A stretch of DNA of 64,000 bases, from positions 103,649 through 167,648 of the forward strand of contig CBDUKN010000003.1 in the NCBI GenBank assembly GCA_965367815.1. The letters run 5' to 3'. Below are positions 12,611 to 62,786 of this stretch, piece after piece. This stretch comes from an uncultured Thermoprotei archaeon. GTDB lineage: Archaea > Thermoproteota > Thermoprotei > Thermofilales > B15-G2. The notes beneath the pieces are model-generated. The model saw only the letters and a program-made list of their open reading frames with translations, was not told the DNA's origin and ran no database searches. The translations under genes were made by a program, and so were the position numbers. The stretch's first letter is position 1. Every line of letters begins with the position of its first letter.

Positions 12611-12690
12611 CGCAGGAGTAGAGATTTCTTTGATACCTAGAAATACTTGATACATAGAAAAGTTAATATTTATGAATTTCGGTAGGGTGA

Positions 12691-16293: not shown

Positions 16294-16328
16294 AAGATTA
16301 ATTTAAGACAGCTGTTTTTAATTACTCG

Positions 16329-20105: not shown

Positions 20106-20109
20106 TATC

Positions 20110-20152
20110 TCACCAGACCGAAAAAGAGTGCTTTTGAAAGTATTTAAGTTTT
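20110..20152 (-). promoter_or_regulatory. BRE/TATA promoter and GGTGA ribosome site of the OPT-like gene
   Basis: Minus strand reads AAAACTTAAATA at 20152-20141 and GGTGA at 20114-20110, ahead of ATG 20105. Confidence 0.55.
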
Positions 20153-20162
20153 CCTATAAGAG

Positions 20163-23100
20163 CTACTCTTCTTTCAGATACTTTGACAGCTCTTCTTTAG
20201 CTGTCTTGATGTAGCGCTTGCGGTCGGCTAGAGTCAGTGCTCTCCACATCAATAGCTGCTTTCTTACAGCGTCGGCGAACTTTCTTACTCCTCTCCTGTA
20301 GACGTAGTCTATTCCGCTTACTCTATTTATGTCAAGTGTTGTTTTAACTATTTGTGAGCCAGCTGGTACGTGGAAGTGCAGATCGCTGGTCATTACTACT
20401 CCGCTGTCGAAAGGCTTCACTTTAACGGTAGTGTGCAGTATAGTTGTCTCGCCTTCGGCCGAGACTTTCTTGCATAACTCGATTTTATCTATCATGAAGT
20501 CTGCTGCTGTCTCAGATCTGTGCAGGTTGAAGTATTCTATGAGGTAGTTTATTAGACCGTCTAGCTCAAGTGGGCTTACCACTACTGGGATATTAATCAT
20601 GTAGCGGTCTCCTCTTTTGATACCTACTGTCTCTATACGCCATCTGCGCTCGAAGGACGGCGTTACTGCTTTAGATGCGACTGATACAGGGTATATTGCG
20701 GCTGTAAGCGTAATGAGTATTGATAGTCCTACTGCACCAGCTACCCATGAAGATGAGGTGTTCAACACTAGGCCTGGTATTAGCTTAGGCAGTACTATTC
20801 CGCAGAGGTAGCCTAGTACTCCTGAGACGACACCTATAATCATGAATTCTAGTAGGAACAGTCCAGCCACGTGTGTCGGCGACAGACCTATAGAGCTCAG
20901 TATAGAGACTTCTCTTTTGCGCTCGTAGACTGCGCTCAGACATGTGTTGAGTATAATGAACACTAGTATTCCCACAGGAATTAGTGCTTCTCTACCGATA
21001 ACCTGTTCTGAGAGTATTTTAGCATATACTCTTACTTCCTTGTCTTTTGCAGCACATATCTTGTATTTAATTCTGTAAGTTAATCTCTGGGCAATTTCAT
21101 ACACTTTACTTGGGTCTTCGAGCACTACTGCTACAGAGAAGACCGCGCCGTGGTGTCTTAAAACAACCTTGTAGGGGACTATGATTATTTCCTCGCCTTC
21201 AAGTCTACGCGCCTCTAAAGCCTGTACACGGCCGCCTCCAGGAGCCTCTATAGCTAGAGGTGTCACTAAGTCGTTATTCGGGTCTCTAATCGACTCAAGC
21301 CACTCTGCATTGAATATTCCTACTACTTTGAGTGCTTCTCCTTCGAACGTTAAGTAGTCTCCTATACTTATATTATACTGAGTTGCCAGTATGTCAGGTA
21401 TTAAACACTCTTTTACATCGTCTGAAGAGAAGTACTGGCCTATAATATAGCCTTTCTTGAGAGCGTCTTCAATATATGTGTACCTCTCTCCTTGAGAGAG
21501 CCCTAAAATACCCTTTACAAAAATCATTCTTCCCTTATAGATTAGCTCGTATCCTTCTTTTCTCTCACCGCCTCTCATTACTTCGGGCCTAATAAACTGT
21601 ATTAGTCCCCTTTCAAGATACGCTCTAGGAGCTATTGCTTTAATAATGTCTGAGAGCTCTCCTTTAAACTGTGTTATGGCCTCAAGTGGAACAGGAGCTA
21701 TTTCTCCACGTACTATCAGTAGGCCGTCGTAGGTTATGGCGTGTTCGGGTAGTTTGTAGTGTTCTATAAGAGTTACGATTTTAGTAGTTGTAACCGAGAG
21801 TGTACTGACTAGAGTAGCTACTACGACCATTAGCGAGACCATTGTTAGTCCTGTTCTAAGTTTACGTCTCCTGAGGTTACCCGCGCCTAGAGAAGCAGCC
21901 ATTATTAGTGCGCTAGCTCTGCTTATGTCAGAGAAGTGTACTCCCGTAGTTTTCAGGCGGAACTTCTTTGCCGTTTCAATAACCCTTGACAGTATTAGCC
22001 CGAGAGGTGCCATTATAACAAATATCAGAACAAAAGCTATCACAACTAGGGGCGCATTTGATGCTAGCGCAAGGGCTGGGTGCACAAAGTACATTATAGA
22101 AGTCGAAGTGACTAGGAGAAGTGCTATTGCGAGAGCTCTCTTGCGCAGCGACTCGAAGTTAAAGAACAGTCTTTCGGCGAGAAACGCGAATGGTAAGGCT
22201 AGTAGAAGGAAGATTGCTGCCGCGAAGCTTGTATCTATCATTGTTCTCCTGAGGTCGTCGTATACTGCTCTATAGTAGCTCCAAGCAGCAATAGCTAGAG
22301 CTATGCCTTTCTCATACTTCTTCTTGGCTATAGCTTCTTCTGCTTTCTTGAGAGTCTCGTTGGCTATCTCAAAGTAATGTAATATTGTAGGCAAGTAGAG
22401 CTGATGAGCCAATGCTTTGTGCATGTACTGGCTACATAGTAGCTGGAACTCCTTGGCGTAGACTAGTGGAGAGCACTTGATTAATACTTGCTCACAGCCT
22501 GTAGGTGTTATACCGTATCCACTATTAGTGAGTACTACTAGGTGGTATGTTGAGTAAGATGGGAATATTATAACATCCCATGGAGGACCAGGAGGTATTG
22601 AGGGATCTGCACTGACATAAATTGCAACGTAAGGTCTCAGAGTTTCTCTAGACATTGTGTGCCACTTGAGGTCATAGTTTAAGCCAAAGTATCTTGTGCT
22701 GCTCTTAGTGTTGTGGTTCACTACGAGTATAACCGGTATCAGTGGCTGTAGAGACTCTGGGTCAAGGAGGTCGGAGAGTATTATTGTAGCAGCCTTGAAG
22801 AGCGAGGTTCTCACTGTATATTCAGGGGCATTTATTCTAACGCGGAAGCTTGGGAGAGCTGTATCACCCATGTTAGGCATGTATCTATCTCCGGTCTTGT
22901 AGTCAAACTTGTATGCATAGAAGCTGTAAGGACCTCTATTGTGTGGAGCAAGCGCCTTAAGCACAGCAATACCATGTTCATCTGTCTTAACTATAATTTG
23001 GTGGTTTACACTAGATGAAATAAAGTTAAACTGCGCCACTACTAATGCCTCGGGCACCGGGTGATACCTCTGCTCTGCCTCTGAGTACTCTTCGACAGAA

Positions 23101-24647
23101 ACTATTGCTTTCGGTATGTTACGCTGGTCTACTCTACTGAACTCTAGTGGGAAGGGCGCGTCAGCTGAAGCAAGTTTCTCTAGCCATACTACGGCAATAA
23201 ACGCGTAGTAAATAGAGTTAGATAGCCGTGAAGCCGTGCTCATGTAGGTGTCCGCTGGAGTGCCTCTGAGTGGAGAATACGTGTCTGCGGTTATAGCTAT
23301 ACCGTATCCTCCAGCCTGCACAAGAGGCTCTATTTCAAAGTATTTTCTCCAGAGGAGCTGGTAACTATCTGGGTTATAGTAGGGTGAAGCTGTTATTATT
23401 CCTTCTTGTGTAATAAGGTTAAAGAGAACAGATTTTTCTTTATATAGGAATTCTATTAGATCCAGTATACCAAAGTCGGGGTTGCTGAAGAAACTTTCTT
23501 CGGTGAGCCTCTTACTTTCGGGAGTTGCTCCATAGAAAGCTCCAGCGTCGAGTAAGGCTATACGTGTTTCGCCTTTAGGCTCGTAGTATGCAGATGGGTC
23601 TAAGTGAATCATTAGCTTAATGTCTGTTAAGTTTATTGGAGCCAGAGGCTTTTCAAAAGCATGAGAGAAAGCAAATTCTCTCGCACCCGCGAGAGCTTGG
23701 TGATGTCCTGAGAAAGCAATAAAAGCTACAGTACGTAAAGGCTTTTCGTCCTTAAATAGCTTAGCTATAGCCAGTAGAGAGGATATGCCTAGTGCTTCAT
23801 CTGCACCAGGAGACCAGGCCGGAGCAACAGACCATGAATCAAAGTAAGCTGTCAATGCGACAACTTCATCAGAATATTTAGAGCCTTTCTTGAGCGCTAT
23901 AATGTTATATGCTGCAACATTCTCGAAAGTCATATTCACTACTATTTTTGCCTTAACTCTTTCTCCAGCATCGAGCTCTGAGAGGATATCCTTGAAGTCG
24001 TTCCAGTCTACAGCGAGCCTAGGAGCGTATATAGGTAGCTCAGAAAACTTGTCTGCTGCCTCAATTTGAGTTACACTTCCTGAAAGAGGATTAACTACAA
24101 AGATAATTGCTTTAGCGCCTAGAGAAATAGCTCTCATCCACTCATATCCGCTGTCGAACTCCATGACCACGATCTTGTTGTCAATATCCTTCCCGTTCAT
24201 TTCTTCTTTGCCGTGTCCAATGTAAACTAGCTCAGCTGTAATACCGTTAGGAGTATAGCATGTTTCAACAAGGTTAGGGACCAAAGCATAAGCTTTAATG
24301 ACCTTATGATAAGGAGACAGGATCTCAACATAAGAGCCATAGTCTATTGGAACCGTTACAGTAAAGTTCTCTACATAAACATCATACCCATAGCTTTTGA
24401 GAGATTCGACAATGTAGTTTACTGACTCGTAGTAGCCCGGATAGCCTACAACTCTAGAGCCTCTCGAGGCGAAGAACTCTAAGTGTGTCCTTACTTCAGT
24501 CGAATAGTACTTGGAAAATTCATTTAGCTTAGTTTCATAGGCGTCTCCCGCGGACAGAAGAGGTAGTTGCATTTGGGGTATACATAGTATAGTTAGTACT
24601 AGAATTAATGCAATGGTCTTTATGTTACCGGATCTTACAACCGGCAT
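20163..24647 (-). CDS. Fusion: signal peptide, PA domain plus M28-like peptidase domain (atypical ligands), helical bundle, MacB/FtsX permease, C-terminal soluble domain
   Basis: GSRVVGYPG, AELVYIGHG..GAKAIIF (PA), NIIA..TAYFDS..PGADEALG, FSGHHQALAG; NLRRRKLRTGLT, YERKREVSILSSIGLSP. Confidence 0.85.
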   Translation of the reverse strand: MPVVRSGNIKTIALILVLTILCIPQMQLPLLSAGDAYETKLNEFSKYYSTEVRTHLEFFASRGSRVVGYPGYYESVNYIVESLKSYGYDVYVENFTVTVPIDYGSYVEILSPYHKVIKAYALVPNLVETCYTPNGITAELVYIGHGKEEMNGKDIDNKIVVMEFDSGYEWMRAISLGAKAIIFVVNPLSGSVTQIEAADKFSELPIYAPRLAVDWNDFKDILSELDAGERVKAKIVVNMTFENVAAYNIIALKKGSKYSDEVVALTAYFDSWSVAPAWSPGADEALGISSLLAIAKLFKDEKPLRTVAFIAFSGHHQALAGAREFAFSHAFEKPLAPINLTDIKLMIHLDPSAYYEPKGETRIALLDAGAFYGATPESKRLTEESFFSNPDFGILDLIEFLYKEKSVLFNLITQEGIITASPYYNPDSYQLLWRKYFEIEPLVQAGGYGIAITADTYSPLRGTPADTYMSTASRLSNSIYYAFIAVVWLEKLASADAPFPLEFSRVDQRNIPKAIVSVEEYSEAEQRYHPVPEALVVAQFNFISSSVNHQIIVKTDEHGIAVLKALAPHNRGPYSFYAYKFDYKTGDRYMPNMGDTALPSFRVRINAPEYTVRTSLFKAATIILSDLLDPESLQPLIPVILVVNHNTKSSTRYFGLNYDLKWHTMSRETLRPYVAIYVSADPSIPPGPPWDVIIFPSYSTYHLVVLTNSGYGITPTGCEQVLIKCSPLVYAKEFQLLCSQYMHKALAHQLYLPTILHYFEIANETLKKAEEAIAKKKYEKGIALAIAAWSYYRAVYDDLRRTMIDTSFAAAIFLLLALPFAFLAERLFFNFESLRKRALAIALLLVTSTSIMYFVHPALALASNAPLVVIAFVLIFVIMAPLGLILSRVIETAKKFRLKTTGVHFSDISRASALIMAASLGAGNLRRRKLRTGLTMVSLMVVVATLVSTLSVTTTKIVTLIEHYKLPEHAITYDGLLIVRGEIAPVPLEAITQFKGELSDIIKAIAPRAYLERGLIQFIRPEVMRGGERKEGYELIYKGRMIFVKGILGLSQGERYTYIEDALKKGYIIGQYFSSDDVKECLIPDILATQYNISIGDYLTFEGEALKVVGIFNAEWLESIRDPNNDLVTPLAIEAPGGGRVQALEARRLEGEEIIIVPYKVVLRHHGAVFSVAVVLEDPSKVYEIAQRLTYRIKYKICAAKDKEVRVYAKILSEQVIGREALIPVGILVFIILNTCLSAVYERKREVSILSSIGLSPTHVAGLFLLEFMIIGVVSGVLGYLCGIVLPKLIPGLVLNTSSSWVAGAVGLSILITLTAAIYPVSVASKAVTPSFERRWRIETVGIKRGDRYMINIPVVVSPLELDGLINYLIEYFNLHRSETAADFMIDKIELCKKVSAEGETTILHTTVKVKPFDSGVVMTSDLHFHVPAGSQIVKTTLDINRVSGIDYVYRRGVRKFADAVRKQLLMWRALTLADRKRYIKTAKEELSKYLKEE

Positions 24648-24868
24648 CGAATCCTATTCTTTTAAACAATCTAATTAAATTTTCGCCGACAAATAAATTC
24701 CTTTCTAACTTTAACTTAAAGAAGAAGCCCTAGACTACGTATAGTTCTACTTCTACTGAGTACTCAGCCGGATAAACACACTGAAAACACTTTCAACTGA
24801 ATACTTATTTAACTATGTAAAATTCAATATATTAAGTGGTAACTGTAGCAGACTCCACCAGTCTGTTC

Positions 24869-24899
24869 AGTATATATACTTTACTGTAGGGTTTAAATA
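24869..24899 (+). promoter_or_regulatory. TATA box with an adjacent 12-bp palindrome upstream of the second OPT-like gene
   Basis: AGTATATATACT at 24869-24880 and TTTAAATA at 24892-24899, ~29 nt before ATG 24928. Confidence 0.5.
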
Positions 24900-24927
24900 G
24901 TTGAGTTGTTATAACTCTGCGACCCGT

Positions 24928-26913
24928 ATGTCTGAAGGAACTGGTAAGACCGAAGTGACCGAGAAGGGACTAGCTGCCTACAGACTGCCCATAAAGGGTC
25001 TAATACTAGGCATAATCGGAATGCTCCTCGCTGTATGGATTATCAAAATAATCGGCCCTGTCAGCGGCTTCCTACCCACAGCTGAAACATCATTAATGTT
25101 CATTATCCTCATAGCCTTAATAACATCATTCCTGCCTCCTAAGCTCAGGCTATCAATGGAAGACTATGTAGTAATCTTCGCTATGATCTACGCGGCTCCA
25201 GCTGTGAGCGATGGTTCATTATTCTTCTCTCTACCAATATGGATTCATACAGATGTATATTCCTGGCTCAACAGTATGAAGGCACAAGGCCTAGTGCCTT
25301 CTTGGGTCTTCGGACCCAAGGAACTATACGACTTAGCTCTTAAAGGAGGAGTATCTCCACCATGGGGACAGCTAACCCCATGGATACTGACAGGATTTGT
25401 TGTCACAATAGCTTACGCTCTAGCCTACATGCTCGCCGCCGCTGCCTTCAGAAGGCAGGTAATTGAAGTAGAGAGAATAGTCTTCCCGGTAGCTACAGCC
25501 ACATACACTTCAGTAATAAGCGCTTACGCGGTGGGAGAAGAAGCCAAGGCCCCTCTACTAGGCACTAAGAGAAACTGGATGATTGTAGGACTCTTAGTAG
25601 GATTCCTCCTAACAGCCTTCACTGAAGGATACTTAGTCTCAAGAGTAGCACCCTGGCTACCAGTAATACCAGGCACCACTGATCTCTCGCCACAACTATG
25701 GAAAGCCGTGCCCGGCCTAATGCTAGACATGTATTGGAACAGCTTCTTCCCATGGAGCTTCTTTGGATTCTTCTTCCCAATGGAGAGCCTGATAGGCATC
25801 AGTATAGGCGCTATCGTAACATACATGATACTGCTACCACTAGAAATTAGAATGGGACTAATACCTTCGTTCGACATGTCCATGAGCAAAGAAGACGTAT
25901 GGTTCTATGCGTTCAGAGTTGAGGGTTTCAAGTTCTTCTTCGGAGCAGTAGCTATGATCAACGCTGTAGTGATCGCATACTATATTACAGGTCTCAAGTC
26001 ACTAAGAGAAACATGGAAAGAGAACCCTGAAGACGCATTCGGCCGCTACAGAACAACAGCCATACTAGCTATTGTAGGCATACTTGTGTTCCTAGCAGTA
26101 GGCGTAATTTTTGGAGGATTCCTCCCAGCAATATTCCTCATAGCACTAGACATACTGTTCCTCGCCAACATGTTCTGGATTCGCGGCATTGGAGAATGTA
26201 ACTTAATGTGGAGTGTCTGGGCCGTCTACTTTATGGATGCACTACAGATTTGTGAAGTAATGGGTGTTGTCCAGAGAGGTGTAGGTGAAGTAACACCTAT
26301 GCTAGTAGGAACATACGCTCCAATGATGCTAGCATTAGAGACTTCAAGTATGGCTGGAGTAGCCTACATGGAGACAAGCAGATTCGCTTTCTTAGCCAAA
26401 GTCAGTCCCAAGAAAGTTGCAGCAGCTCTCATAGTAGGCTTCATTATTGCATACTTCATTGAATCCATTATTTCAGCTCAGTTAACATTCCAGTTCGGCA
26501 TAAGGCACGACTACTTTGGTGCATGGGGCTACGGATACTACATATTCTTCTATCCATATAGAGCTATTCACCAAGTAGACGTTATTGAGGCCTGGTACTC
26601 GCTAAGCGGCGCAGCTATACCCTTCTATGCCTTCTGTTTCATACTAGGCTTCGCATTAACGTTCGCTAGATACAGGTGGGCTATACCAATAAGCGCTATC
26701 GGTCTAGCCTTCGGCATGGGCCTAGATCCATGGAGCTTCGGCTACACGTTCATACCATACCTCGTCATCAAGTGGCTAATGCTCAAGCTAGGTGGCACTA
26801 AGCTAGTAGAGCAAGTAGGTGCACCATTCTTCGCCGGTGCCTCTGCCGGAGGAATGCTAGCAGCCTTCTTCGCAGGCATTGCTGCATACTACCAGGCAAT
26901 ATACGGAGGATAG
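24928..26913 (+). CDS. Second OPT-superfamily-like transporter (DUF6785-like)
   Basis: Polytopic; LSMEDYVVIFAM, GGVSPPWG, FRRQVIEVERIVFPVA, KWLMLKLGG..PFFAG; start moved from TTG 24901 to ATG 24928 on TATA spacing. Confidence 0.75.
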   Translation: MSEGTGKTEVTEKGLAAYRLPIKGLILGIIGMLLAVWIIKIIGPVSGFLPTAETSLMFIILIALITSFLPPKLRLSMEDYVVIFAMIYAAPAVSDGSLFFSLPIWIHTDVYSWLNSMKAQGLVPSWVFGPKELYDLALKGGVSPPWGQLTPWILTGFVVTIAYALAYMLAAAAFRRQVIEVERIVFPVATATYTSVISAYAVGEEAKAPLLGTKRNWMIVGLLVGFLLTAFTEGYLVSRVAPWLPVIPGTTDLSPQLWKAVPGLMLDMYWNSFFPWSFFGFFFPMESLIGISIGAIVTYMILLPLEIRMGLIPSFDMSMSKEDVWFYAFRVEGFKFFFGAVAMINAVVIAYYITGLKSLRETWKENPEDAFGRYRTTAILAIVGILVFLAVGVIFGGFLPAIFLIALDILFLANMFWIRGIGECNLMWSVWAVYFMDALQICEVMGVVQRGVGEVTPMLVGTYAPMMLALETSSMAGVAYMETSRFAFLAKVSPKKVAAALIVGFIIAYFIESIISAQLTFQFGIRHDYFGAWGYGYYIFFYPYRAIHQVDVIEAWYSLSGAAIPFYAFCFILGFALTFARYRWAIPISAIGLAFGMGLDPWSFGYTFIPYLVIKWLMLKLGGTKLVEQVGAPFFAGASAGGMLAAFFAGIAAYYQAIYGG

Positions 26914-27090
26914 GGTAATAAAATCTTAATTATTTACCATTATTTTTTCCAAATCTACTTTCTGACATAAGATTGCGTTTACTTGTTTTTAATGTAGAAA
27001 GATATAGCTCTAATTTACTCTAATTATTCTAACAAGAATTTCTATCGATGATAAAATATTTATTGAGGAGGTTAATTCAGAATAATAGCT

Positions 27091-30000
27091 ATGATGACTT
27101 CAAAATATTTGCTAATGGGGCTAGCAGCAGTAATACTAGTTCAGCTAGCTCTAGTCCATAGTCAGCCTAGCATATATATTGAAGTAAAGGGTGTCGTAAG
27201 AGATGCTGTAACAGGTAAGCCTCTGGGAGATACAATTATCGTAGTCTACAATAGGAGCGCGGCAAAAGCTTCTCCAGTGCTCATTAAGACCGACAGTGAA
27301 GGCCGTTTCTCTATAGGGCTTATTCCTCAGTTGAGCTATACTCTGCACTTTATTCATGCCAATGAAAAAGGTTTAATAGACTATGTTCCTGCATGCCTTA
27401 CTATAGAGAAAAACGCGGTGTCAGTAGAGTGTGAAGTGAAGCTCTATCCTGGTGCAGTTCTATGCATTAAAGGAGACCTATACTATATTGGCGGAGAGGT
27501 TTCGCGGTGGAGGCGCTACGTTGTCTTAAATGTTGAGAACCGGAGGTACTCTGAGGTATTTTCCTGTGGAGAAGCTGTAGTCAAGACTATTACTGGTGAA
27601 TCTGGTCGAGTTAAAGTAAGTCTGCTAGACGAGTACGGATCTGTACTGTACTTTGTGCTGAAGAACAGTCCTATATCGAAAACACTCAACGAAAGTATTG
27701 TTGTAGTTCCCGCAGACTCGCCTATAGTTATTTTAGCTACAGCGCCCGCTAAGAACTACAGGACAGGCTACTTCGATGAAGTACACTTCTACGTAGATAA
27801 TCCTACTCTAAGGAAGGGGCTTTCTCAGGGAACTTTCCTCGTATACGATATTACAGCTGACTCTCTCAGCTACTGTATTAAGCTAGTTGAAGAGGATATA
27901 AGGAAGCTCGAGTCTATGGTAAACGAGTTCGAGAGTATAGGCTTCTATGTCGCTGAGGAGAGGTACAGGTATCTTGACGAAGCGAAGAGGCTTGTAGAGA
28001 GAGCTAGAAGCTACATTATAGAGACTGGAGTTGAAGAAGCCTTAACTATGCTGGAGAAAGCTGACGCTATTGTCTGGCCAGGTGAGAGAGGTATACTTTA
28101 CAACAGGCTGATGTTCATGAAGCTCGTCGCTAAAGAAAGTGCAGCAGTACTCCCAGTGTTACTTGCTGTATTCGCTATAGCTATGGGCATGTTCTTTCAC
28201 GAAGACTTGAAGAAAAAAATAGCTACGACGGTAGCTTTCTATGTGTTGTTCCTCGTGCTCTTCATATATTCTTATCCAGGCTTTAAGCTAATAGATGCAA
28301 CTAAGTTCACTGTAAGCACTATAGGCTCGCTGGCTGGGGCGCTAGCACTTTTCTTCGTGCTTCCGCGCTACTTTAAGGAACTCGAGGTTCCGGGTAAGGC
28401 GTCGTTTTCAAGTATTGTGGCAATAACAGCGTCTATTGCTAAGAGATATGCTAGAGTAAGGAAGCTGAGGACAACGATTACTATTTTCTCGCTGGCGATA
28501 CTGATATGGGCTTTCACAGTACTCACATCTGTCTCTACAATACACACTATTGTTTCAGAAGCCCCAGTCAACGTACTCTACTCGGGTACAGCAGTTGTTG
28601 TTAGAGCATACTACAAGGATATGCCTGAGTCGCTGTCTCTACAAGATACTGGTCTCTGCGAGCACTTCTTTAAGCCGAAAGTACTCGCTGTTAGAGCCTA
28701 CCTCAAGCCTACTTTTGCCGGAGAATCTAAGATCTATGTTGGCGGCAGGAGAATAGTATCTATTATGGGTATAGGGCCTGAGGAACGTGAGTTCTGGCTT
28801 AAAGGAAACGTGGTTGAAGGAGATTTAGCTAAACTCGATGATGAGGGAGTGCTGCTACCAAAGTCTCTTGCATACAGGATTGGAGCAAAGGTAGGCGATA
28901 AAGTAGTGCTCTACATAGAGAACAGGATCTACGGTGTTTACAAAGATACTTTGACAGTAGTAGGCATATACGACGATGCTGCTGTAGGGAACTTGGACAT
29001 AGATAAGAAGCCGGTACTGCCCTTCATTCTCTCTGGAGAAAATATCGTTTACTGTAATGCGTCTAGTACAGTTATTGTCAGCTGGAAGTACTTGATGTAC
29101 AGGCTGTTCCCCGACACGAAGACAGGTATTTCCCGCGTATCGAGCGTATACAGTATAGCTTTAGTTCCTGGAAGCGGGGTCAACGTAGAGGCGGCTACAA
29201 GGAGTTTTCTAGAGTGCAAGGGTATAGGCTACTATGTCGCAGTAGTTAAGGATGGTTCTGCTCGCTTTTACCACTTCGGTGAGCGCATGGTTATAGTAGG
29301 TTCCTACGAGCTACTGTTCCCAATACTAATAGTAGTCGGCAACGTAGCCGTAACAATGTACAGTATTGTTAGAGAGAGGCACCGCGAAATATTCATACTC
29401 AACGCGCTAGGCTACAATCCGCTGCAGATAGCTTCCTTGTTCTTAATGGAGTCTATTATCTACGGACTAATTGGGGGAGGAATAGGCTATATTTCTGGTA
29501 TAGTTACATACAAGCTTATGACAACAGAGTGGTTTAAGCCATTCCAGTTTATTGTGAGAGAAAAGCTCGAGTGGTACTGGAGTATAATTGGTGTCACGCT
29601 GTCAATAGTAATATCGATGCTGTCTTCATTCAGGCCAGCTCTCTCTGCAGCCTACAAGGTTTCTCCGACATTATTTAAGAAAGCTAAAGTCACTGAGGAA
29701 GAGAAAATCGAGCGTGAAGAAAAGTACTTAGTCACATACACTTCGAAGACCATTGGCATGCCTATACGCGTACACGAGGACGAAGCAGTAGTCTTCTACT
29801 CATATCTCTACACTAAGCTCAAGGATCTGGAGGGAGGAGTTATTGAGCGTATAGAAGACTTAGAGGAGCTCGAGGAAGAAGAGCACCCCGACGGCAAGCG
29901 TGTAAAGAGATTTAAGTTCAAGTATGTTTCAGACACAACTAAAGGAAAAGTTGTCATCGACTGTGAGCTAATAATGACGAAGATGCCTAAGACAGACTAC

Positions 30001-30129
30001 TATACAGTAGAGCTAGTAGCTAAGCCGAAGGAAGAAGAAATCTCAATAGTCTACATAGACCAGGCGGCGGCAGTCATTAAGGATATAGTAATGGGCTGGC
30101 TGAAGGAAAGAAAGTTCCACGTAGGCTAG
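27091..30129 (+). CDS. Fusion: signal peptide, carboxypeptidase-regulatory/Ig-like domain, helical bundle, MacB/FtsX permease, C-terminal soluble domain
   Basis: VKGVVRDAVTGKPL..TDSEGRFSI; RYARVRKLRTTIT; GAKVGDKV; RERHREIFILNALGYNP. Confidence 0.85.
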   Translation: MMTSKYLLMGLAAVILVQLALVHSQPSIYIEVKGVVRDAVTGKPLGDTIIVVYNRSAAKASPVLIKTDSEGRFSIGLIPQLSYTLHFIHANEKGLIDYVPACLTIEKNAVSVECEVKLYPGAVLCIKGDLYYIGGEVSRWRRYVVLNVENRRYSEVFSCGEAVVKTITGESGRVKVSLLDEYGSVLYFVLKNSPISKTLNESIVVVPADSPIVILATAPAKNYRTGYFDEVHFYVDNPTLRKGLSQGTFLVYDITADSLSYCIKLVEEDIRKLESMVNEFESIGFYVAEERYRYLDEAKRLVERARSYIIETGVEEALTMLEKADAIVWPGERGILYNRLMFMKLVAKESAAVLPVLLAVFAIAMGMFFHEDLKKKIATTVAFYVLFLVLFIYSYPGFKLIDATKFTVSTIGSLAGALALFFVLPRYFKELEVPGKASFSSIVAITASIAKRYARVRKLRTTITIFSLAILIWAFTVLTSVSTIHTIVSEAPVNVLYSGTAVVVRAYYKDMPESLSLQDTGLCEHFFKPKVLAVRAYLKPTFAGESKIYVGGRRIVSIMGIGPEEREFWLKGNVVEGDLAKLDDEGVLLPKSLAYRIGAKVGDKVVLYIENRIYGVYKDTLTVVGIYDDAAVGNLDIDKKPVLPFILSGENIVYCNASSTVIVSWKYLMYRLFPDTKTGISRVSSVYSIALVPGSGVNVEAATRSFLECKGIGYYVAVVKDGSARFYHFGERMVIVGSYELLFPILIVVGNVAVTMYSIVRERHREIFILNALGYNPLQIASLFLMESIIYGLIGGGIGYISGIVTYKLMTTEWFKPFQFIVREKLEWYWSIIGVTLSIVISMLSSFRPALSAAYKVSPTLFKKAKVTEEEKIEREEKYLVTYTSKTIGMPIRVHEDEAVVFYSYLYTKLKDLEGGVIERIEDLEELEEEEHPDGKRVKRFKFKYVSDTTKGKVVIDCELIMTKMPKTDYYTVELVAKPKEEEISIVYIDQAAAVIKDIVMGWLKERKFHVG

Positions 30130-43936: not shown

Positions 43937-44332
43937 GTGTCACATAAAGAAGAAGTAGAGCTAATAAAAAGAAGAAGTCTAAGAATGCTAGAATACGCGA
44001 AAAAATGTTTATCCACGGGAGACTATGATCTTGCCTCATTTCTAGCAGAACAAGCAGCTCAGCTTTACTTAAAGTCAGTACTCCTAAAAACTACAGGTGA
44101 AATGCCGAGAACTCATGTAATAAGACAGCTGTTTCACGCATTAAGAGAACTAGCTAAAAATAAAGAACAAATAGACGAGTTTGTACGTAAAAACAGGAGA
44201 CTTCTTATAGGACTCGAAGAAGCCTACTTAGCCACAAGATACTTCTACAGAGTATACGAAAAAGAAGAAGCAGAGGAGCTAGTAAAATTCGCTGAAAAGG
44301 TGATAAAAATTGCTAAAAATATTGAAGTCTAG
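43937..44332 (+). CDS. HEPN-domain protein
   Basis: YDLASFLAEQAAQLYLK, PRTH, LEEAYLATRY; paired with an MNT gene. Confidence 0.9.
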   Translation: MSHKEEVELIKRRSLRMLEYAKKCLSTGDYDLASFLAEQAAQLYLKSVLLKTTGEMPRTHVIRQLFHALRELAKNKEQIDEFVRKNRRLLIGLEEAYLATRYFYRVYEKEEAEELVKFAEKVIKIAKNIEV

Positions 44333-44657
44333 GCTCGAACTAATCAAGCTAGCTGCCCAGTGGAAATACTGGTCGAAAAAAATAGCTGAAGCAGCTAAAG
44401 AACTGCTCGAAGACTGCGAAGTCTACGTATTTGGTAGCATAGTAGAAGGCGAAGCTGTCGGAGGAAGCGACGTAGACATACTCATTATATCAAATAAAGT
44501 ACCTTCAAAGGCTAAAGAAAAATGGAAACTAAAAGCCGAATTAGAAGAGAAAGCAGGATTACCTCTTTACCATCCCTATGAAATACACTTGGTTAACAGA
44601 AAAGAAGCCGAGTGGTACATGAAACATATTAAAAAGAAAATTCTAGTAGAAATCTAA
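44310..44657 (+). CDS. Minimal nucleotidyltransferase (MNT)
   Basis: VYVFGSIVEG..SDVDILI; GGTGA before TTG 44310. Confidence 0.9.
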   Translation: MLKILKSRLELIKLAAQWKYWSKKIAEAAKELLEDCEVYVFGSIVEGEAVGGSDVDILIISNKVPSKAKEKWKLKAELEEKAGLPLYHPYEIHLVNRKEAEWYMKHIKKKILVEI

Positions 44658-45159: not shown

Positions 45160-47250
45160 TTGACACCAGTAGTGATGCTGCTCCTAGTAGCTGGCTTAGT
45201 GTGTCTAGCACCTAATGTTTCTTCGCTAACTCATAGAAAAGAAAAAATTAGAAATAAATGTAGCAGTGTAGGTCTCACATATAGGTACAGTACGGTGTAT
45301 GTGTATAAAGATGCTGGCTATCTGCCCTCAAATTCTCCTAAAACAACTTCACTTACAGTAAATATTCCGTCGACAGCCTCAACAGGCGTAAAATATATCT
45401 ATGTAAAAGCCTATAGCGGAAGCTACTATGATACGCGTAGCTTTAAACTAACAGTATATTCTTCGGGTTTTGTACTTTCTGCTTCGCCTAGCACTCTTTC
45501 AATAGGTCAAGGAAGCTCTGCTACGACAACACTTAAAGTAATAAAAATAGGAAACTACAATAAGCAAGTTACATTCGGTATACAGAGCGCTCCCAGCGGA
45601 ATATCCGTGTCATTCAATCCCTCGTCAGTTACTCCTACAGCGAGTACTACAGCGACAATAAATGCTGCTTCTTCAGTTTCGCCTGGAACATACAATATTA
45701 TTATAAAGGCCTTAGGTGCAGATGGTAAATACGCTATTAAAACTATAAAAGTAAATGTAGTGGCGTCAGGCTTCACTTTATCCTGTAATCCCTTAAGCGT
45801 AACAGTTTACCAAGGAGCTTCAACTACACTCGCCTTAACGGTAACTAAAATCGGCACATATAGTAAGCAAGTATCTTTTAGTCTTCAGTCGGCTCCAAGC
45901 GGTATTACAGCTTCATTTAGCCCCTCAACAGTAACACCTAGTGCCTCAGCTACAGTAACAATACATGTAGCTTCCTCAGTTTCGCCTGGAACATACAATA
46001 TTGTCATAAAAGCTATGGGAGCAGATGGAAAAATAGCAACGACTACAATTACTATTACAGTTAAAGTGAAGCCATTTGATTTCACTATATCAGTTTCACC
46101 GTCAAGCACTCAAGTAAATAAAGGGGACTCAGCTACAGCAACAATAACTCTAACACTTACTAGCGGATCAGGTAAACCCATAACCCTTTCGCTAACAGGA
46201 ATACCTGCTGGAACCTATACTTTCAATCCCAGTACAGTCACACCAACAGGATCTTCTGTCTTAACTATAAATACTGCCCCACTCAACGAAGGAACATACA
46301 TCATAACAATTAAAGCTACTTACGGAAGCTTAACGAAAACAGCTACACTTACTCTAAAAGTAGTAGGCTTCGATTACTCCTTAAGTGTCTCGCCGTCAAG
46401 TATAGAAGTAGAGCAAGGATCATCTGCATCAGTAACAGTCAAACTAACACTTCTAAAAGGCTCGGGTGAAACTGTATCACTCTCACTTGAAGGCCTGCCG
46501 AGCGGAGCAACATACTCCTTCAGCCCCTCGACAGTAACACCTACAGGAACATCTACACTGACAATAAACACTGGTACGGCAAACAAGGGAACCTATACTA
46601 TTATGGTCAAAGCAATCAGTACAAGTGGAGTAACTAAAACAGCTACTCTAGTATTGAAGGTTAAAGAGAAGTCAAAGTGTATTATTGCTACAGTTACTTA
46701 CGGCAGCGAAGTAGCAGACGAAGTACAGGTATTGAGGAATTTCAGAGACCATATAGTCTTATCTACGTACGCTGGCAGCTGCTTCTACGTAGCATTCAAC
46801 AACTTCTACTACAGCTGGAGCCCCTACGTAGCCTACTGGATACAAGCAAACCCATGGATCAAACCACTATTCAAAGCATTAATCTACCCACTAATAGGAA
46901 CACTTCTCTTCGCAACAAGCCTAGTACATCCGCTGGCAGCGCTAAGCTCCGAGCTAGTAGTCTACGCAGCCGGAACAGTAATCTCAACACTACTAGGCTT
47001 AATCTATGTAGCTCCAGTAACACTTATAGTATTCCACTATAGACGCAAATGGTTCAAAGAGTCAGTAGCAAAGAAACTTCTCTTAGCTACTACAGCGACA
47101 CTGGCTATCTGTATTACGGCACAAGTACTAGTACTGAGCCCTGTACTAGTAGTAGCAACATCACTCTACGTAATACTGTTAATAGCGCTAGCTGGCTACA
47201 CAACACCAATACTAGCGAGTAGGCTGGTAAACAAATATAAACACAAATAA
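45160..47250 (+). CDS. Surface protein with tandem Ig-like repeats and a CFI-box-CTERM-like C-terminal membrane domain (5' end possibly damaged)
   Basis: Hydrophobic N-terminus, four ~100-aa S/T-rich repeats (F.LS.SP..PSTVTP..GTY.I.IKA), CIIATVTYGSE..EVQVLRNFRD..FYYSWSP, then TM helices. Confidence 0.85.
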   Translation: MTPVVMLLLVAGLVCLAPNVSSLTHRKEKIRNKCSSVGLTYRYSTVYVYKDAGYLPSNSPKTTSLTVNIPSTASTGVKYIYVKAYSGSYYDTRSFKLTVYSSGFVLSASPSTLSIGQGSSATTTLKVIKIGNYNKQVTFGIQSAPSGISVSFNPSSVTPTASTTATINAASSVSPGTYNIIIKALGADGKYAIKTIKVNVVASGFTLSCNPLSVTVYQGASTTLALTVTKIGTYSKQVSFSLQSAPSGITASFSPSTVTPSASATVTIHVASSVSPGTYNIVIKAMGADGKIATTTITITVKVKPFDFTISVSPSSTQVNKGDSATATITLTLTSGSGKPITLSLTGIPAGTYTFNPSTVTPTGSSVLTINTAPLNEGTYIITIKATYGSLTKTATLTLKVVGFDYSLSVSPSSIEVEQGSSASVTVKLTLLKGSGETVSLSLEGLPSGATYSFSPSTVTPTGTSTLTINTGTANKGTYTIMVKAISTSGVTKTATLVLKVKEKSKCIIATVTYGSEVADEVQVLRNFRDHIVLSTYAGSCFYVAFNNFYYSWSPYVAYWIQANPWIKPLFKALIYPLIGTLLFATSLVHPLAALSSELVVYAAGTVISTLLGLIYVAPVTLIVFHYRRKWFKESVAKKLLLATTATLAICITAQVLVLSPVLVVATSLYVILLIALAGYTTPILASRLVNKYKHK
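45673..46002 (+). repeat. Intragenic direct repeat between Ig-like repeats 1 and 2
   Basis: TCAGTTTCGCCTGGAACATACAATATT is identical at 45673-45699 and 45976-46002 (303 nt apart). Confidence 0.9.
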
Positions 47251-48451: not shown

Positions 48452-49507
48452 TTACAAGGCACGGCTAGCAATTACAGGTATACAAAGCTCTTCCTTGAAT
48501 ACCCACTTCTTGCCTTCAACGTACTTCCAGAACCATGGAGCCACTTTCCTCATATCAGTGCTCGACTGAATGAAGCAGCCGTAAGGCATCTCTACATCAA
48601 AGCCTTCGGCCTCACGCATAATATACTCATCATAATTGCACGGGAACTGGCCTACAACTAGCGCCTTATCAACATCAATTATAGCTGAAAACGCGCCAGG
48701 AAGCTGGCACAAAATTCTAGCGAAAACTGGGGCATCTTTTCCTTCGAAGTAAAGAAGTCTAACTGGAATAATCTTCATGTTAGCGAAAACTAAAGCCGTG
48801 TTTCCTCGCCATATAGCTTTAACATGTCTAGTAAAGTGGTAGCTGAGAACTTGTTCAGAGACTTCAGGTAAACTTGGATCCTTCTTTCTAGCCTCCTTGT
48901 ATATCGTAAGAGGCCTAGCAAAAGGATTTCTCATTCGACCCTGAAGAAGAACTAAATCATAAACATCCGGAGCTTTGAGTCCATTATCCCATTTTTCAAC
49001 AGGATATTCGTACAGTCTTCGAACTCGCTCAAAATCAAATTCAGGAAGTATAGCTCCTGTCTGTGGATCATACTTAGAAAGAGGACTTAGCGGAGACCAC
49101 CTCAAGTACTCATAGCCTTCAACCACTATTAAGGGCTCGCTTTCAAAGTAATCAATATACTTTCTAACTAAAGGAGGCGGAACTAGAGCTACTATCAAAG
49201 TATATGAACCTACATTATAGACATCCCTAACTGTTGTAGTGAAAGGAGGAGCCCTCCTAATATTTAGCTTAGGAAAAATTGCCGCCAACATTAATAGATT
49301 AGTTTTCTTTAAATCAATCAGAAACTTAAACTGCCCCTTCCTACGAAAGTTATACAACATCCTATGAAGAGTAGAAATAGAAAGCCCGCTTATTCTCGCT
49401 GCTTCACGTAAACTCCAAGCCTTAGTGGCGGCTTTCATAAACTTCCATTCGTTCTGCTTTACTCTAGGTAATAATTCTGCGAATCCTTCTTTTGTAATCT
49501 TACTCAT
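48452..49507 (-). CDS. HTH transcriptional regulator with a duplicated HTH-like organisation
   Basis: SLREAARISGLSISTLHRML HTH; second HTH-like segment DVYDLVLLQ..SEQVLSYHFTRHV; likely start MSKITK at 49507 rather than 49639. Confidence 0.75.
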   Translation of the reverse strand: MSKITKEGFAELLPRVKQNEWKFMKAATKAWSLREAARISGLSISTLHRMLYNFRRKGQFKFLIDLKKTNLLMLAAIFPKLNIRRAPPFTTTVRDVYNVGSYTLIVALVPPPLVRKYIDYFESEPLIVVEGYEYLRWSPLSPLSKYDPQTGAILPEFDFERVRRLYEYPVEKWDNGLKAPDVYDLVLLQGRMRNPFARPLTIYKEARKKDPSLPEVSEQVLSYHFTRHVKAIWRGNTALVFANMKIIPVRLLYFEGKDAPVFARILCQLPGAFSAIIDVDKALVVGQFPCNYDEYIMREAEGFDVEMPYGCFIQSSTDMRKVAPWFWKYVEGKKWVFKEELCIPVIASRAL

Positions 49508-49583
49508 AAGTGATATAATATAGAAAACAAAGAAAAAATTTACCCTAGCGGTCAAAATAATAAGATGCCAATATTCTACTCCC

Positions 49584-49754
49584 TCAAGGAGTTGGATCTG
49601 GTGAAGGATCAGGATCTCCAGGAAGTTCTGGTCCGTCACTTGTAGCTACAACGACATGACCAGTAAATATGAAAACTAAGACTAGTAGAGCTACGATGAA
49701 TCTAGGATTGCTAAGTAGTTTCTTCGCCATTAACAGTAGAGCTTCTTTCTTCAT
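49584..49754 (-). CDS. 56-aa secreted pro-peptide (not in the ORF track)
   Basis: MKKEALLLMAKKLLSNPRFIVALLVLVFIFTGHVVVATSDGPELPGDPDPSPDPTP; GTGGT ribosome site, TTTAAATA at 49792-49785, T-rich tract downstream. Confidence 0.75.
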   Translation of the reverse strand: MKKEALLLMAKKLLSNPRFIVALLVLVFIFTGHVVVATSDGPELPGDPDPSPDPTP

Positions 49755-50060
49755 ATTTACCACAAATATCTTTTCCCAAAAACCTATTTAAATTTGAGTA
49801 TGATCTGAAATAAAGCATCAAAAAGGAACAAACACAAAACTAGCAGAGCTTCAAACATGCGGCAAAACACTAGTAATAAACCCAAAATAAGCCCCTAATC
49901 AAACAAAGCAAGCCCTGAACAAACTCAAACCCTAAAACCCAAAAAATATACAATAATACTTCGATGGCAATTATTCAAGAAAAAATAGTCAAAAAGCTGC
50001 TGAAAATCTAGTTGAAGAAACTAAGAATTCATTTATTATCTAAAGACATCTAGGTAAACT

Positions 50061-50844: not shown

Positions 50845-51309
50845 GTGTTAATAGACTCAAACCTAGCAAGAAAACTAGTAAATATAAGTGAAAACACAGG
50901 CAGAGAATTCGTTCTCATAGCCTATGAGAACGGATCAAGACACCTATACAAACTAGGTTTAAACGGAGGCAGGTTCCCAATATACTCACCAAACATAAAA
51001 TACGTTTTCCACACCCACCCAGTTCCACGATATACTCCTTCACTAGCAGACATAATTACAGCATACAATCTAAGCAGAATAAAAGGAACACCAGTTCCAC
51101 TATACACAGCTTCTACAGTAGGAAACAATATAGTAGTCTACGAAATAAAAATACATCCAAACGCAGACATAAACAAAATAGCAGAAGAAATAATACCAAT
51201 AGAAAAAATAGTAGCCCAAAACTACGAAAAATACTCTAAAATACAGCACTATAAAATGCTATCAAAACCACATATAACAATCACAAGATATCTCCTATCA
51301 AAATACTAG
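50845..51309 (+). CDS. JAB/MPN+ (JAMM) metalloprotease-like protein
   Basis: N-terminal Glu (TGREF) and an exact HxH-x7-S-x2-D motif, HTHPVPRYTPSLAD. Confidence 0.7.
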   Translation: MLIDSNLARKLVNISENTGREFVLIAYENGSRHLYKLGLNGGRFPIYSPNIKYVFHTHPVPRYTPSLADIITAYNLSRIKGTPVPLYTASTVGNNIVVYEIKIHPNADINKIAEEIIPIEKIVAQNYEKYSKIQHYKMLSKPHITITRYLLSKY

Positions 51310-51713
51310 TACTGTACCCACAGCCTCTTAATACCAACTTTATCGAAATCCTGATCTTCGCTTGCTACTGCCTGCAAACCATAGTTCTCTATCGTCGCAA
51401 CATGTATTGAATCCGAAGACTTAAGCCCATACTTCGTCATTATTGTCTTAGCTCTCAAGTACTCCTCTACACTTATAGGCAGTACATCAACATAAGGCAA
51501 TACAGCCTTGTCAATAAAATCTACTGTATCAGCAAGTGGTACTCCATACTTTTTCCTAGATATGTAGATTACCTCGTCTAAAACAAGCACATTAGTATAC
51601 AGCAAATGATTCAACAATAAGTCTAGCCAGAAATCTTCAACATGAATGTTAAAATGCCTGAAGCTGAAGCTAAGCTAGTACACTAGCAAACAAGAGTCAA
51701 CAAAAACCTTCAT
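51306..51713 (-). pseudogene. vapC with an in-frame stop
   Basis: MKVFVDSCLLVY, TAG at 51675-51677, then the same frame continues to VLDEV, SDSIHVA and SEDQDFDKV. Confidence 0.85.
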
Positions 51714-58812: not shown

Positions 58813-59058
58813 ATGAATCCTGAGGCTAAAGTCAGGATCTCAAAAAAGTTTACTTTATATATTCCGAAAGCAATAGCAGAAGCCGCGGGAATTAAAGAAG
58901 GAGACTACGTGAAAATAAAAGTAGAAGACTCAAAAATAATTTTAGAGCCCGTACCTGACCCATTTGAATTAGCCTTAAAGGGCCCCAAATTCGCTAAAAC
59001 CACATTCGAGGAATTCGAAAAAGAATCAGAGGAAATGCAAAATGAACTCTTCAGCTAA
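58813..59058 (+). CDS. AbrB/MazE-type antitoxin
   Basis: VRISKKFTLYIPKAIAEAAGIKEGDYV. Confidence 0.9.
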   Translation: MNPEAKVRISKKFTLYIPKAIAEAAGIKEGDYVKIKVEDSKIILEPVPDPFELALKGPKFAKTTFEEFEKESEEMQNELFS

Positions 59059-59518
59059 ACTCAAAATACTCTTAGACTCAACCTACATTCTACCAATAGT
59101 AGGCGTAGAAGTCGAAGGCACAGAAAAAGTACTACTGCTACTTAAGAAACTTAGAAGAAAGAAAAAAGCTGAATTCTACTATACTCAATTCAATATCCTC
59201 GAAATACTAGGTAAAATAACTAAAACAAAATACGATCCCAAAATAGTAGCCGCAGGACTATCTTCTATACAAGAAGAATTCAATTTAACCCACCCAACAA
59301 CAGAAGGCTACATAAAAGCCCTCAATTTAAGAAAAAGAGGCTTCAAAGACCTAATAGACTTACTCCTCTACACAACATCCCTTACACGCAACCTACTCTT
59401 CTTGACAAGAGACGACACCTTAGTAAACTTCCTTGAAAAAATAGGAGAAAGCACAGAAAACATACTATACGAAGAAACTTTCATAAAACAAAACTCTACT
59501 CTAAGTAAACACACATAA
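59042..59518 (+). CDS. vapC: PIN-domain toxin VapC
   Basis: LLDSTYILP, NILE, DLIDLLLY, FLTRDD; overlaps the antitoxin. Confidence 0.88.
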   Translation: MNSSAKLKILLDSTYILPIVGVEVEGTEKVLLLLKKLRRKKKAEFYYTQFNILEILGKITKTKYDPKIVAAGLSSIQEEFNLTHPTTEGYIKALNLRKRGFKDLIDLLLYTTSLTRNLLFLTRDDTLVNFLEKIGESTENILYEETFIKQNSTLSKHT

Positions 59519-62381: not shown

Positions 62382-62786
62382 CTAAAGCTGCTCAAAGTAC
62401 TTTACTTCATCTAATGCTTTTAAATAAATTTTTTCAAGCAGTCCAAATCTATTTAAGAGAACTTTTCCCGACTCAAATACTTCCAGAATAAACCACGCTG
62501 GAGCATAATTCAATATTTTAACATCTACAGGAAATCCTATTTCCTCAGACAACTCTTTTTCCAGCATAAACTTATACTTAAGTAAATCTTCTTGAGGCTT
62601 AACGTATAAAGCTAAATCTATATCTCTGAAAGGATACTTTCTTAGAAATGATCCATAGAGCACCGCTACTAATACTTCACTACGGCTTTTCAATACTTCT
62701 TTAAGCTTACACAATATTATTTTCTTCTCCTGCTGGCTAATCTCATAAAACCTAAATTTTTCGCGAAGCTCTAGTTCTAGAGACAT
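62382..62786 (-). CDS. Minimal nucleotidyltransferase (MNT antitoxin)
   Basis: AVLYGSF..RDIDLALY, PVDVKILNYAP. Confidence 0.9.
   Translation of the reverse strand: MSLELELREKFRFYEISQQEKKIILCKLKEVLKSRSEVLVAVLYGSFLRKYPFRDIDLALYVKPQEDLLKYKFMLEKELSEEIGFPVDVKILNYAPAWFILEVFESGKVLLNRFGLLEKIYLKALDEVKYFEQL

Follow-up and report, generated by a model that had tools for sequence, protein, structure and literature searches.

A conserved gene pair in one order of hot-spring archaea, encoding a small signal-peptide-like protein and a double Lrp/AsnC-like regulator, as a possible peptide-receptor cassette

The DNA analysed here, called the window below, is a stretch of 64,000 nucleotides (nt) from an uncultured Thermoprotei archaeon. 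On its minus strand, a 56-codon open reading frame (ORF) begins with the ATG at 49754 and ends with a TGA stop at 49584. At 76 nt after that stop, a second ORF begins on the same strand with the ATG at 49507 and runs for 351 codons to 48452. We found that the two genes recur side by side in related hot-spring archaea, where they constitute a conserved, probably self-regulated cassette. As the leading explanation, to which we give a probability of about 0.45, we propose an autoregulated propeptide-receptor cassette that works like the RRNPP systems of bacteria but is not homologous to them. A sequence-only reading of the locus had listed a 56-amino-acid (aa) ORF with a TATA box, a ribosome site, a basic N-region, a hydrophobic core, a VVA motif and a tail, followed by an ORF with a helix-turn-helix (HTH), and every item is present in the sequence. 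The parts are as follows.

49584..49754, minus strand: small gene, 56 aa plus stop, recognised by its sequence, its profile matches, its ratio of nonsynonymous to synonymous substitution rates (dN/dS) and its signal-peptide shape.
49754-49701, minus strand: n-region, aa 1-18, basic, net charge +4.
49700-49644, minus strand: hydrophobic core and c-region, aa 19-37, the uncharged core FIVALLVLVFIFTG being followed by HVVVA.
49643-49587, minus strand: Pro/Asp tail, aa 38-56, TSDGPELPGDPDPSPDPTP.
49587..49607, minus strand: codons for residues 50-56 (PSPDPTP), the sole part of the peptide predicted by the complex model to touch the regulator.
48452..49507, minus strand: 351-aa double Lrp/AsnC-like protein, as judged from a Pfam HTH match, the AlphaFold model and fold searches, with HTH1 at aa 18-54, alpha/beta domain 1 at aa 58-166, HTH2 at aa 182-232 and alpha/beta domain 2 at aa 233-329.
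49785..49792, minus strand: TATA box TTTAAATA, its last base 31 nt before the ATG; (C)AAAnTTAAATA in 14 aligned ortholog promoters.
49759..49763, minus strand: ribosome-binding-like GTGGT, 5-9 nt before the ATG, where orthologs have GTGA/GTGG.
49827..49838, minus strand: left arm of an inverted repeat, TTTGTGTTTGTT, presumed operator half-site, with 9/12 bases complementary to the right arm across a 22-nt spacer.
49793..49804, minus strand: right arm of the inverted repeat, ATCATACTCAAA, abutting the TATA box; its CAAA end is a possible transcription factor B recognition element.

Using a profile built from 15 peptides, we searched 41 genomes of the order and obtained 33 matches at E<1e-4. Thirty of these were located directly upstream of a regulator homolog on the same strand (regulator places being matches of the single 351-aa protein query), as were 15 of the 18 matches outside the training set. 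The flank scan suggested by the sequence-only reading, for short signal-peptide ORFs with a conserved leader beside homologs of the regulator, was thus positive. Among the three unpaired matches, one ends at a contig end and two are true orphans. Two weaker matches in genome G018 (one at E 1.3e-4) stand upstream of divergent regulators that were detected by profile only, and profile search revealed further divergent regulator members in G004 and G018. In metagenomes, 28 loci of the orthologous subfamily (57-73% identity) were collected. The peptide is present in 19, two of which contain a tandem of two cassettes; 6 are truncated by the end of a contig, and 3 are without it. Around 20 cassettes, the four genes nearest to the pair vary between loci, which makes it a free-standing cassette.

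The window's genome (G000; 2.45 Mb in 37 contigs) encodes a second peptide, 51% identical to the first (E 4e-8), 11 nt upstream of a regulator paralog with 27% identity. Among 19 peptide orthologs (68 pairs), the median dN/dS was 0.32. On these comparisons the 56-aa ORF is a real gene, the paralogous pair, the 30/33 pairing and the dN/dS value going well beyond what chance would give. The proportions of nonsynonymous to synonymous differences (pN/pS) were 0.40 in the n-region, 0.53 in the core and 0.38 in the tail, and residue identity was highest in the tail (0.62, against 0.52 in the n-region and 0.47 in the core); as far as these alignments tell, all three parts are under constraint. P52 and P56 are the only invariant columns in the alignment of the 15 profile peptides. 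Variable tails had been anticipated in the sequence-only reading; the tails are not freely variable, and their C-terminal end is the best conserved part. The gene had also been taken as unannotated. In fact, public protein collections already contain the identical 56-aa sequence, so that the gene has been called but not characterised; entries for its relatives in Infirmifilum lucidum, Infirmifilum sp. NZ and metagenome-assembled genomes of Thermofilaceae or Thermoproteales bear the name 'hypothetical protein'. Pfam and NCBIfam gave no family match for the 56-aa peptide. Whatever the reading of the pair, the small-protein family and the regulator family are both unnamed.

By sequence search, the relatives of the peptide are spread across one archaeal order. 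The single-protein regulator query had matches in 36 of the 40 other genomes of that order, as a rule at 2-8 places in each, and in none of the 20 taken from the other orders of its class. When 251 genomes sampled from the phylum were searched, the strong regulator matches all fell within the order, with a single exception at E 4e-30. A search with the regulator alignment gave one locus in genome contigs and no match in viral contigs; the single-protein search of metagenome contigs gave no match. The regulator family is narrow: a search of 1.84 billion representatives gave 212 clusters at E<=0.001 and 70 at E<=1e-30. In a quick IQ-TREE tree of 64 regulators, those with a peptide are distributed over the deepest branches, and the labelling by presence of the peptide requires at least 7 changes, a pattern that fits an old pairing with several losses. 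No remnant of the peptide was detected at 17 peptide-less regulator loci when stop-to-stop translations in three frames were searched (best E 0.33).

Several loci depart from the simple pair. At the metagenome loci L059 and L060, two complete cassettes stand in tandem, about 2 kb apart, with the differing tails ..PGDPDPSPDPFSQ and ..PGVPNPDPDPSPT. The window's genome carries a third family peptide gene (G000:C1:235281-235454; L008/L056) that has no regulator after it; the gene of a divergent rhomboid protease immediately precedes it on the same strand. The promoter of this third peptide gene retains a right arm, AACAAACGCAAA, resembling that of the cassette at C1:21.3k, and the gene may therefore be controlled in trans. 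At the matching locus of the sister genome G001, the regulator is still present (L052). On contig C29 of the window's genome, there is a truncated copy of the window's regulator (14609-15310; L002; 65% identical, residues 113-346 only) and, on the other strand, a 43-residue fragment (16157-16285; L005). These partial copies look like decayed duplicates.

The peptides share a common build. Over 45 of them, the n-region has a median length of 18 aa, its net charge ranging from +2 to +7 with most values at +4 to +6, and the uncharged core has a median length of 14 aa, with 15 residues or fewer in 34 of the 45. After the core there is a polar, charged or helix-breaking residue and then a few residues that end mostly in Ala. 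With cleavage sites placed heuristically, the predicted -1 residue is Ala in 30 of 46 peptides, and the tails are 10-28 residues long except for one of 8 and one that was left unplaced. The tails consist of 35% Pro and 19% Asp, and their ends are typical of the clade: ..PSPDPxP, ..PDIDPL, ..DPFPxPK or ..PDPDPFP. Judged by sequence, this build is the three-part layout of a cleavable signal peptide with an n-region that is unusually long and conserved, and it predicts that the peptide is exported and cleaved. Type IV prepilin, Tat and lipobox leaders were also considered by eye and rejected: the leaders lack both a G/A ahead of the hydrophobic stretch and a twin arginine, and Cys is confined to a single subclade. 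Peptides of the window's clade carry a His or Cys five positions ahead of the Ala at which cleavage is predicted (TGH-VVVA, IGH-PVLA, LGC-PVLA; window 49644-49658 and orthologs), for which a plain signal peptide offers no explanation.

The AlphaFold model of the 351-aa protein (36 sequences; predicted local distance difference test, pLDDT, 92.8; predicted template modelling score 0.91) consists of an HTH, an alpha/beta domain, a second HTH and a second alpha/beta domain, with extra strands in alpha/beta domain 1. Foldseek ranked the sirohaem decarboxylase NirDL first, with an alignment spanning the entire protein (E 2.4e-6); single Lrp/AsnC regulators came next (probability 0.94-0.99). An independent structure aligner gave NirDL 4czc_A a Z of 10.8 (root-mean-square deviation 4.9, 260 residues) and the next match a Z of 6.4; Lrp/AsnC regulators aligned with the model at Z ~5 over residues 16-141. 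The neighbours of the protein in the ESM Atlas are archaeal clusters named Lrp/AsnC regulator. On sequence, Pfam gave only a borderline IclR-type HTH for the 351-aa protein (residues 26-58, E 1.2e-4), and among 36 members it gave HTH_24 in 12, HTH_IclR in 15 and an HTH_AsnC-type domain in 1. The regulator sequences matched neither the Pfam AsnC_trans_reg (RAM) domain nor any NCBIfam family, and the likeness is at fold level only. No tetratricopeptide repeat (TPR) family was found in the Pfam scans of the members, and the model has HTH plus alpha/beta twice. According to the model, then, the protein is two fused Lrp/AsnC-like modules. Residues D181, D184, H224 and H228, on helices 1 and 3 of HTH2 (motif SxQxLSYHFxRHV; regulator residues 181-232, window 48812-48967), are invariant in all 36 aligned members, peptide-less ones included. 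These four residues may be a metal site.

One complex prediction was made with the regulator alignment and the full pre-peptide alignment, in three runs and with three controls. The runs scored 0.15, 0.67 and 0.73 (median 0.67), whereas the controls scored 0.00-0.01, the best of the three being 0.01. Among solved complexes, 58 of 80 attain this mark, and among mismatched pairs 2 of 110, a calibration that holds only roughly because custom alignments were used. The runs share at least 17% of their contacts, with a partner pLDDT of at least 53. Only peptide residues 50-56 (PSPDPTP) belong to the confident interface, and the n-region makes no contact. On the regulator, the contacts (residues 59, 73, 75, 91-94, 104-108, 134, 239-249, 273-276, 285-287 and 314-321) sit on strands of both alpha/beta domains and outline the cavity between them. 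The sequence-only reading had suggested modelling regulator and peptide together, and the model puts the C-terminal end of the peptide in the regulator cavity. As a prediction, it supports the binding of this end by the regulator.

Pocket residues were compared in an alignment of 66 family members, with counts taken over 39 peptide-linked and 22 peptide-less regulators. R94 is kept in 36/39 peptide-linked versus 9/22 peptide-less regulators, F/Y241 in 36/39 versus 10/22, S/T274 in 30/39 versus at least 3/22, and K/R321 in 30/39 versus 7/22. The pocket signatures also differ among three clades with different peptide ends (..PDPxP, ..IDPL and ..PFPxPK).

The promoter is conserved as well. Alignment of 14 ortholog promoters showed a conserved TATA box, a GTG[AG] ribosome site and an upstream TTTGTRTTTGT element. 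The GTGA/GTGG site is out of frame with the ATG in some orthologs and is therefore not a start codon. In 36 modules, we noted an inverted repeat with 12-nt arms and a spacer of ~22 nt, whose right arm ends 24-48 nt before the ATG and abuts the TATA-like box that follows. For testing, the geometry was fixed at 12-nt arms, a spacer of 19-25 and a right arm adjoining the TATA box; 10 or more of the 12 bases were then complementary in 12/36 modules versus 51/3600 shuffles, and 11 or more in 9/36 modules versus 6/3600 shuffles. Orthologs with the repeat geometry of the window reach 10-11 of 12. The arms are common within regulator clades and different between them (TTTGTATTTGTT, TTTGCATATGTT, TTTGACCTTGAT, TTTGCCATTTTT and AGTTTTTGTTTC). 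Peptide-less regulators (n=17) showed no excess of this geometry, 2/17 reaching 10 of 12 versus 17/1700 shuffles. We infer from this pattern that the inverted repeat is the predicted binding site of the adjacent regulator; read in this way, the cassette would be autoregulated. A genome scan with TTTGTRTTTGT for a regulon gave 11 sites versus ~7 expected, which allows no inference. When HTH helices and operator arms were compared by eye, both varied by clade and no rule emerged.

In the mechanism that we propose, one promoter with its inverted-repeat operator, TATA box and ribosome site would direct synthesis of the pre-peptide and then, from the gene 76 nt downstream, of a cytoplasmic double-Lrp/AsnC-like DNA-binding protein. 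The pre-peptide would be exported with its N-terminus inside and cut after V/A/G-x-A, releasing a Pro/Asp-rich peptide of 10-28 residues. Its conserved C-terminal end (here PSPDPTP with a free carboxylate) would be the ligand; on entering the cavity between the alpha/beta domains, it would alter the action of the regulator on its own operator and so close a feedback loop. Since the positive n-region predicts that the tail is outside, binding by a cytoplasmic protein implies re-import or capture before export. With re-import by a peptide transporter, the loop would report the extracellular peptide, the tail being made outside and the receptor lying inside, and would serve self-sensing or cell-density sensing. 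The genome does encode importers, namely two SBP_bac_5 genes (Opp-type binding protein) and one OPT gene, which are located away from the cassette. Our data show a conserved pair, a coding gene under purifying selection, the fold of the regulator, a clade-specific inverted repeat and a predicted interface. From these we infer that the regulator binds the repeat, that the peptide is exported, cleaved and taken up again, in which direction regulation goes, and any targets outside the cassette. The wider claim is more tentative than the cassette itself: Thermofilaceae-type archaea would secrete short Pro/Asp-rich peptides, and receptors of a new class would recognise the C-terminal heptapeptide within the cell, as the first ribosomal peptide signalling in archaea. 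If so, the several paralogous peptide-receptor pairs per genome would be parallel channels. Asp-Pro bonds are heat- and acid-labile, and this lability could set the life-time of the signal at 80-90 degrees C.

A number of results weigh against the propeptide-receptor cassette. About two thirds of the places of the regulator family are without a detectable peptide, and two peptide genes have no downstream regulator. The tails are conserved rather than hypervariable, and strain-specific 'pherotypes' are not evident. The n-region is long and conserved beyond the needs of export, a feature that the propeptide-receptor model leaves unexplained; the core and c-region together measure ~19 residues, so uncleaved retention in the membrane is also possible. 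No importer or processing enzyme is a conserved neighbour in the 20 loci. Of the three runs of the complex model, one reached no more than 0.15. In the window itself, the repeat (49838-49827 and 49804-49793) has 9 of 12 complementary bases, a mark reached by 8/100 shuffles. Finally, the regulator tree and the pocket-residue sample are enriched for peptide-bearing loci, because 20 loci were chosen for having the peptide, and the pocket counts are not independent, because the sequences are related.

Other explanations were also considered. A 56-residue pre-protein is complete before it is targeted to the membrane, so the regulator could bind the C-terminal end of the not-yet-exported pre-peptide inside the cell; such a cassette would send no signal between cells and would report export capacity or membrane state, or limit its own expression. 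The complex model, which was built with the full pre-peptide and needs residues 50-56 only, agrees with this cell-autonomous sensing, as does the lack of a linked importer, and the conserved long basic n-region could tune the speed of exit from the cytoplasm. We nevertheless regard it as unlikely, since it leaves unexplained the conserved V/A/G-x-A site, the polar break after a 14-residue core, and the presence of several differing paralogous cassettes per genome. Slightly less probable still is an exported effector with a private regulator, in which the peptide, acidic and proline-rich, acts outside by binding metal or surfaces or as an antagonist, the Lrp-like protein does no more than switch the operon on sensing another small ligand, and the modelled interface is spurious. 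The usual ligands of Lrp/AsnC proteins are amino acids, and our fold-search matches include Lrp/AsnC complexes with glutamine, leucine, phenylalanine and D-allo-Ile; tails with 35% Pro and 19% Asp and the single run at 0.15 can be read in the same direction. Such an effector is difficult to reconcile with controls of 0.00-0.01 versus 0.67 for the complex, with pocket residues that are kept with the peptide and lost without it, and with the fact that the only invariant peptide residues fall in the contact segment.

Two further alternatives give the small protein another fate. As an uncleaved membrane anchor with its N-terminus inside and its C-terminus outside, it could control the regulator in the manner of an anti-sigma factor, with release possibly by rhomboid intramembrane cleavage. 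The conserved, amphipathic n-region and the ~19 residues of hydrophobic stretch plus c-region would suit such a partner. Rhomboid protease genes adjoin the cassette in 3 of 20 loci (2 independent cases), corresponding to 3 of the 52 rhomboid places in the order, where chance would give an estimated ~0.2; this link is suggestive, but the adjacency is rare. In 34 of 45 peptides the core is no longer than 15 residues, charged or helix-breaking residues come after it, and the n-region makes no contact in the complex model (silence of a model being weak evidence); membrane anchorage therefore appears distinctly improbable to us. That the pair is an enzyme and its substrate, a NirDL-like protein modifying the C-terminal end of the peptide like a RiPP (ribosomally synthesised and post-translationally modified peptide) enzyme or acting on a tetrapyrrole, is very improbable, although an enzyme is the closest solved structure and D181, D184, H224 and H228 do not vary. 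The protein shares 10-12% identity with NirDL and occurs in 2-8 copies per genome, the clade-specific promoter repeat points to DNA binding, and a tetrapyrrole-family gene (URO-D family) is among the four nearest neighbours in 1 of 20 loci only. In addition, the invariant His residues lie in an HTH2 helix and also occur in peptide-less members, whereas the sirohaem-binding His of NirDL is on a beta strand in the description that the accessible part of PMC4835899 provides.

The autoregulated propeptide-receptor cassette thus agrees with the sequence-only reading in part. That reading had proposed an RRNPP-analogous system with a non-TPR sensor, and the conserved pair, the double Lrp/AsnC-like sensor and the modelled contact speak for it; freely variable tails did not hold up, and the connection to an OPT transporter (18183-20105, ~30 kb away) and to peptidases in the window found no support, such neighbours being kept in 0 of 20 related loci.

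The remainder of the window contains other genes of note. At 10559-30129 lies a cluster of very large proteins (1012-1494 aa) with FtsX-like permease and phospholipase-B-, acyltransferase- or M28-peptidase-like parts; the same cluster includes a penicillin-amidase gene (10559-12610), the OPT transporter gene and three large ORFs without a Pfam match. A 696-aa protein (45160-47250) with about four Ser/Thr-rich Ig-like repeats and a multi-span hydrophobic C-terminal part is probably a surface protein. Toxin-antitoxin-like genes are scattered around the cassette, namely a HEPN and nucleotidyltransferase pair, three PIN-domain genes and a second nucleotidyltransferase (43937-44657, 9032-9460, 51306-51617, 59042-59518 and 62382-62786).

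Lrp/AsnC-type proteins are the commonest archaeal regulators, and peptide-receptor signalling cassettes are so far known from Bacillota and their phages. If the proposed cassette is real, cassettes of peptide and receptor have evolved independently on a receptor scaffold that is unrelated, the ligand of Lrp/AsnC-type proteins can be the end of a peptide, and a circuit for communication or self-sensing that can be tested directly exists in hyperthermophilic archaea. Cassettes are present in cultured Infirmifilum strains, and the predicted ligand, a seven-residue peptide, and the predicted operator, a 46-bp repeat, make the proposal testable now. In the full-text literature (subscription journals lying outside it), we found no earlier description of a ribosomal peptide signal, or of a pair of peptide and Lrp protein, for archaea; the accessible parts of PMC4158269 and PMC12700828 contain nothing on this peptide-regulator pair. 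The pair may be the first peptide signal-and-receptor system seen in archaea. Insofar as the accessible text of a 2015 review (PMC4609331) covers archaeal signals, these are only acyl-homoserine lactones and diketopiperazines. The carboxylated acyl-homoserine lactones of Methanosaeta and the diketopiperazines of haloarchaea would have the same purpose as the peptides described here, if the signalling reading is right; according to that review, however, neither is made by ribosomes or has a receptor gene of such a type beside it.

Among known proteins, NirDL and AhbA-AhbB (4ch7, 4czc, 4czd, 4un1) resemble the regulator in having two Lrp-like modules that form one alpha/beta barrel (Z 10.8). According to PMC4835899, NirDL consists of two Lrp-like modules fused to each other, and its ligand sits in the cavity that the two alpha/beta domains form. 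NirDL acts as an enzyme in haem d1/haem synthesis, whereas the regulator is only 10-12% identical to it, occurs in multiple copies, is tied to a peptide gene and a promoter repeat, and is found outside haem gene clusters, the neighbours of the 20 loci being unrelated and variable; the position of the conserved His, discussed above, also sets the two apart. With Lrp/AsnC regulators (feast/famine proteins such as PH1519/FL11, ST1022 and LrpA), the regulator shares, at the level of fold, the order of an HTH followed by an alpha/beta (RAM-type) domain. These regulators sense their ligand with the alpha/beta domain and have palindromic operators at their own promoter. The protein described here differs in that two modules are fused in one chain, that the Pfam AsnC_trans_reg domain is not matched and that alpha/beta domain 1 has extra strands; its predicted ligand is a peptide end in an inter-domain cavity rather than an amino acid at a dimer interface.

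The systems closest in arrangement are the RRNPP or RRNPPA systems of Bacillota and their phages (Rap-Phr, NprR-NprX, PlcR-PapR, PrgX and AimR-AimP). In these, as far as the accessible parts of PMC10075063 and PMC9765709 describe them, a short gene for an export-type propeptide lies beside the gene for a cytoplasmic receptor-regulator. The receptor of the present cassette has a double Lrp/AsnC-like fold instead of TPR and is related to the RRNPP receptors neither in sequence nor in fold; the TPR receptor, which defines RRNPP, was looked for and is absent, and the cassette is therefore not an RRNPP member. The present cassette belongs to an archaeon, its peptide gene precedes the regulator gene, with which it is probably co-transcribed, and there are no linked Opp genes. 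The n-region of the leader is long and conserved, and the tails are rich in Pro and Asp and have a conserved end. In Phr and PapR, the active part derives from the C-terminal end of the propeptide. The likeness lies in the short propeptide gene adjoining a receptor gene, in the possibility of several cassettes per genome, in the C-terminal propeptide end as the part bound (here by model), and in an operator, here a predicted one, at the cassette's own promoter.

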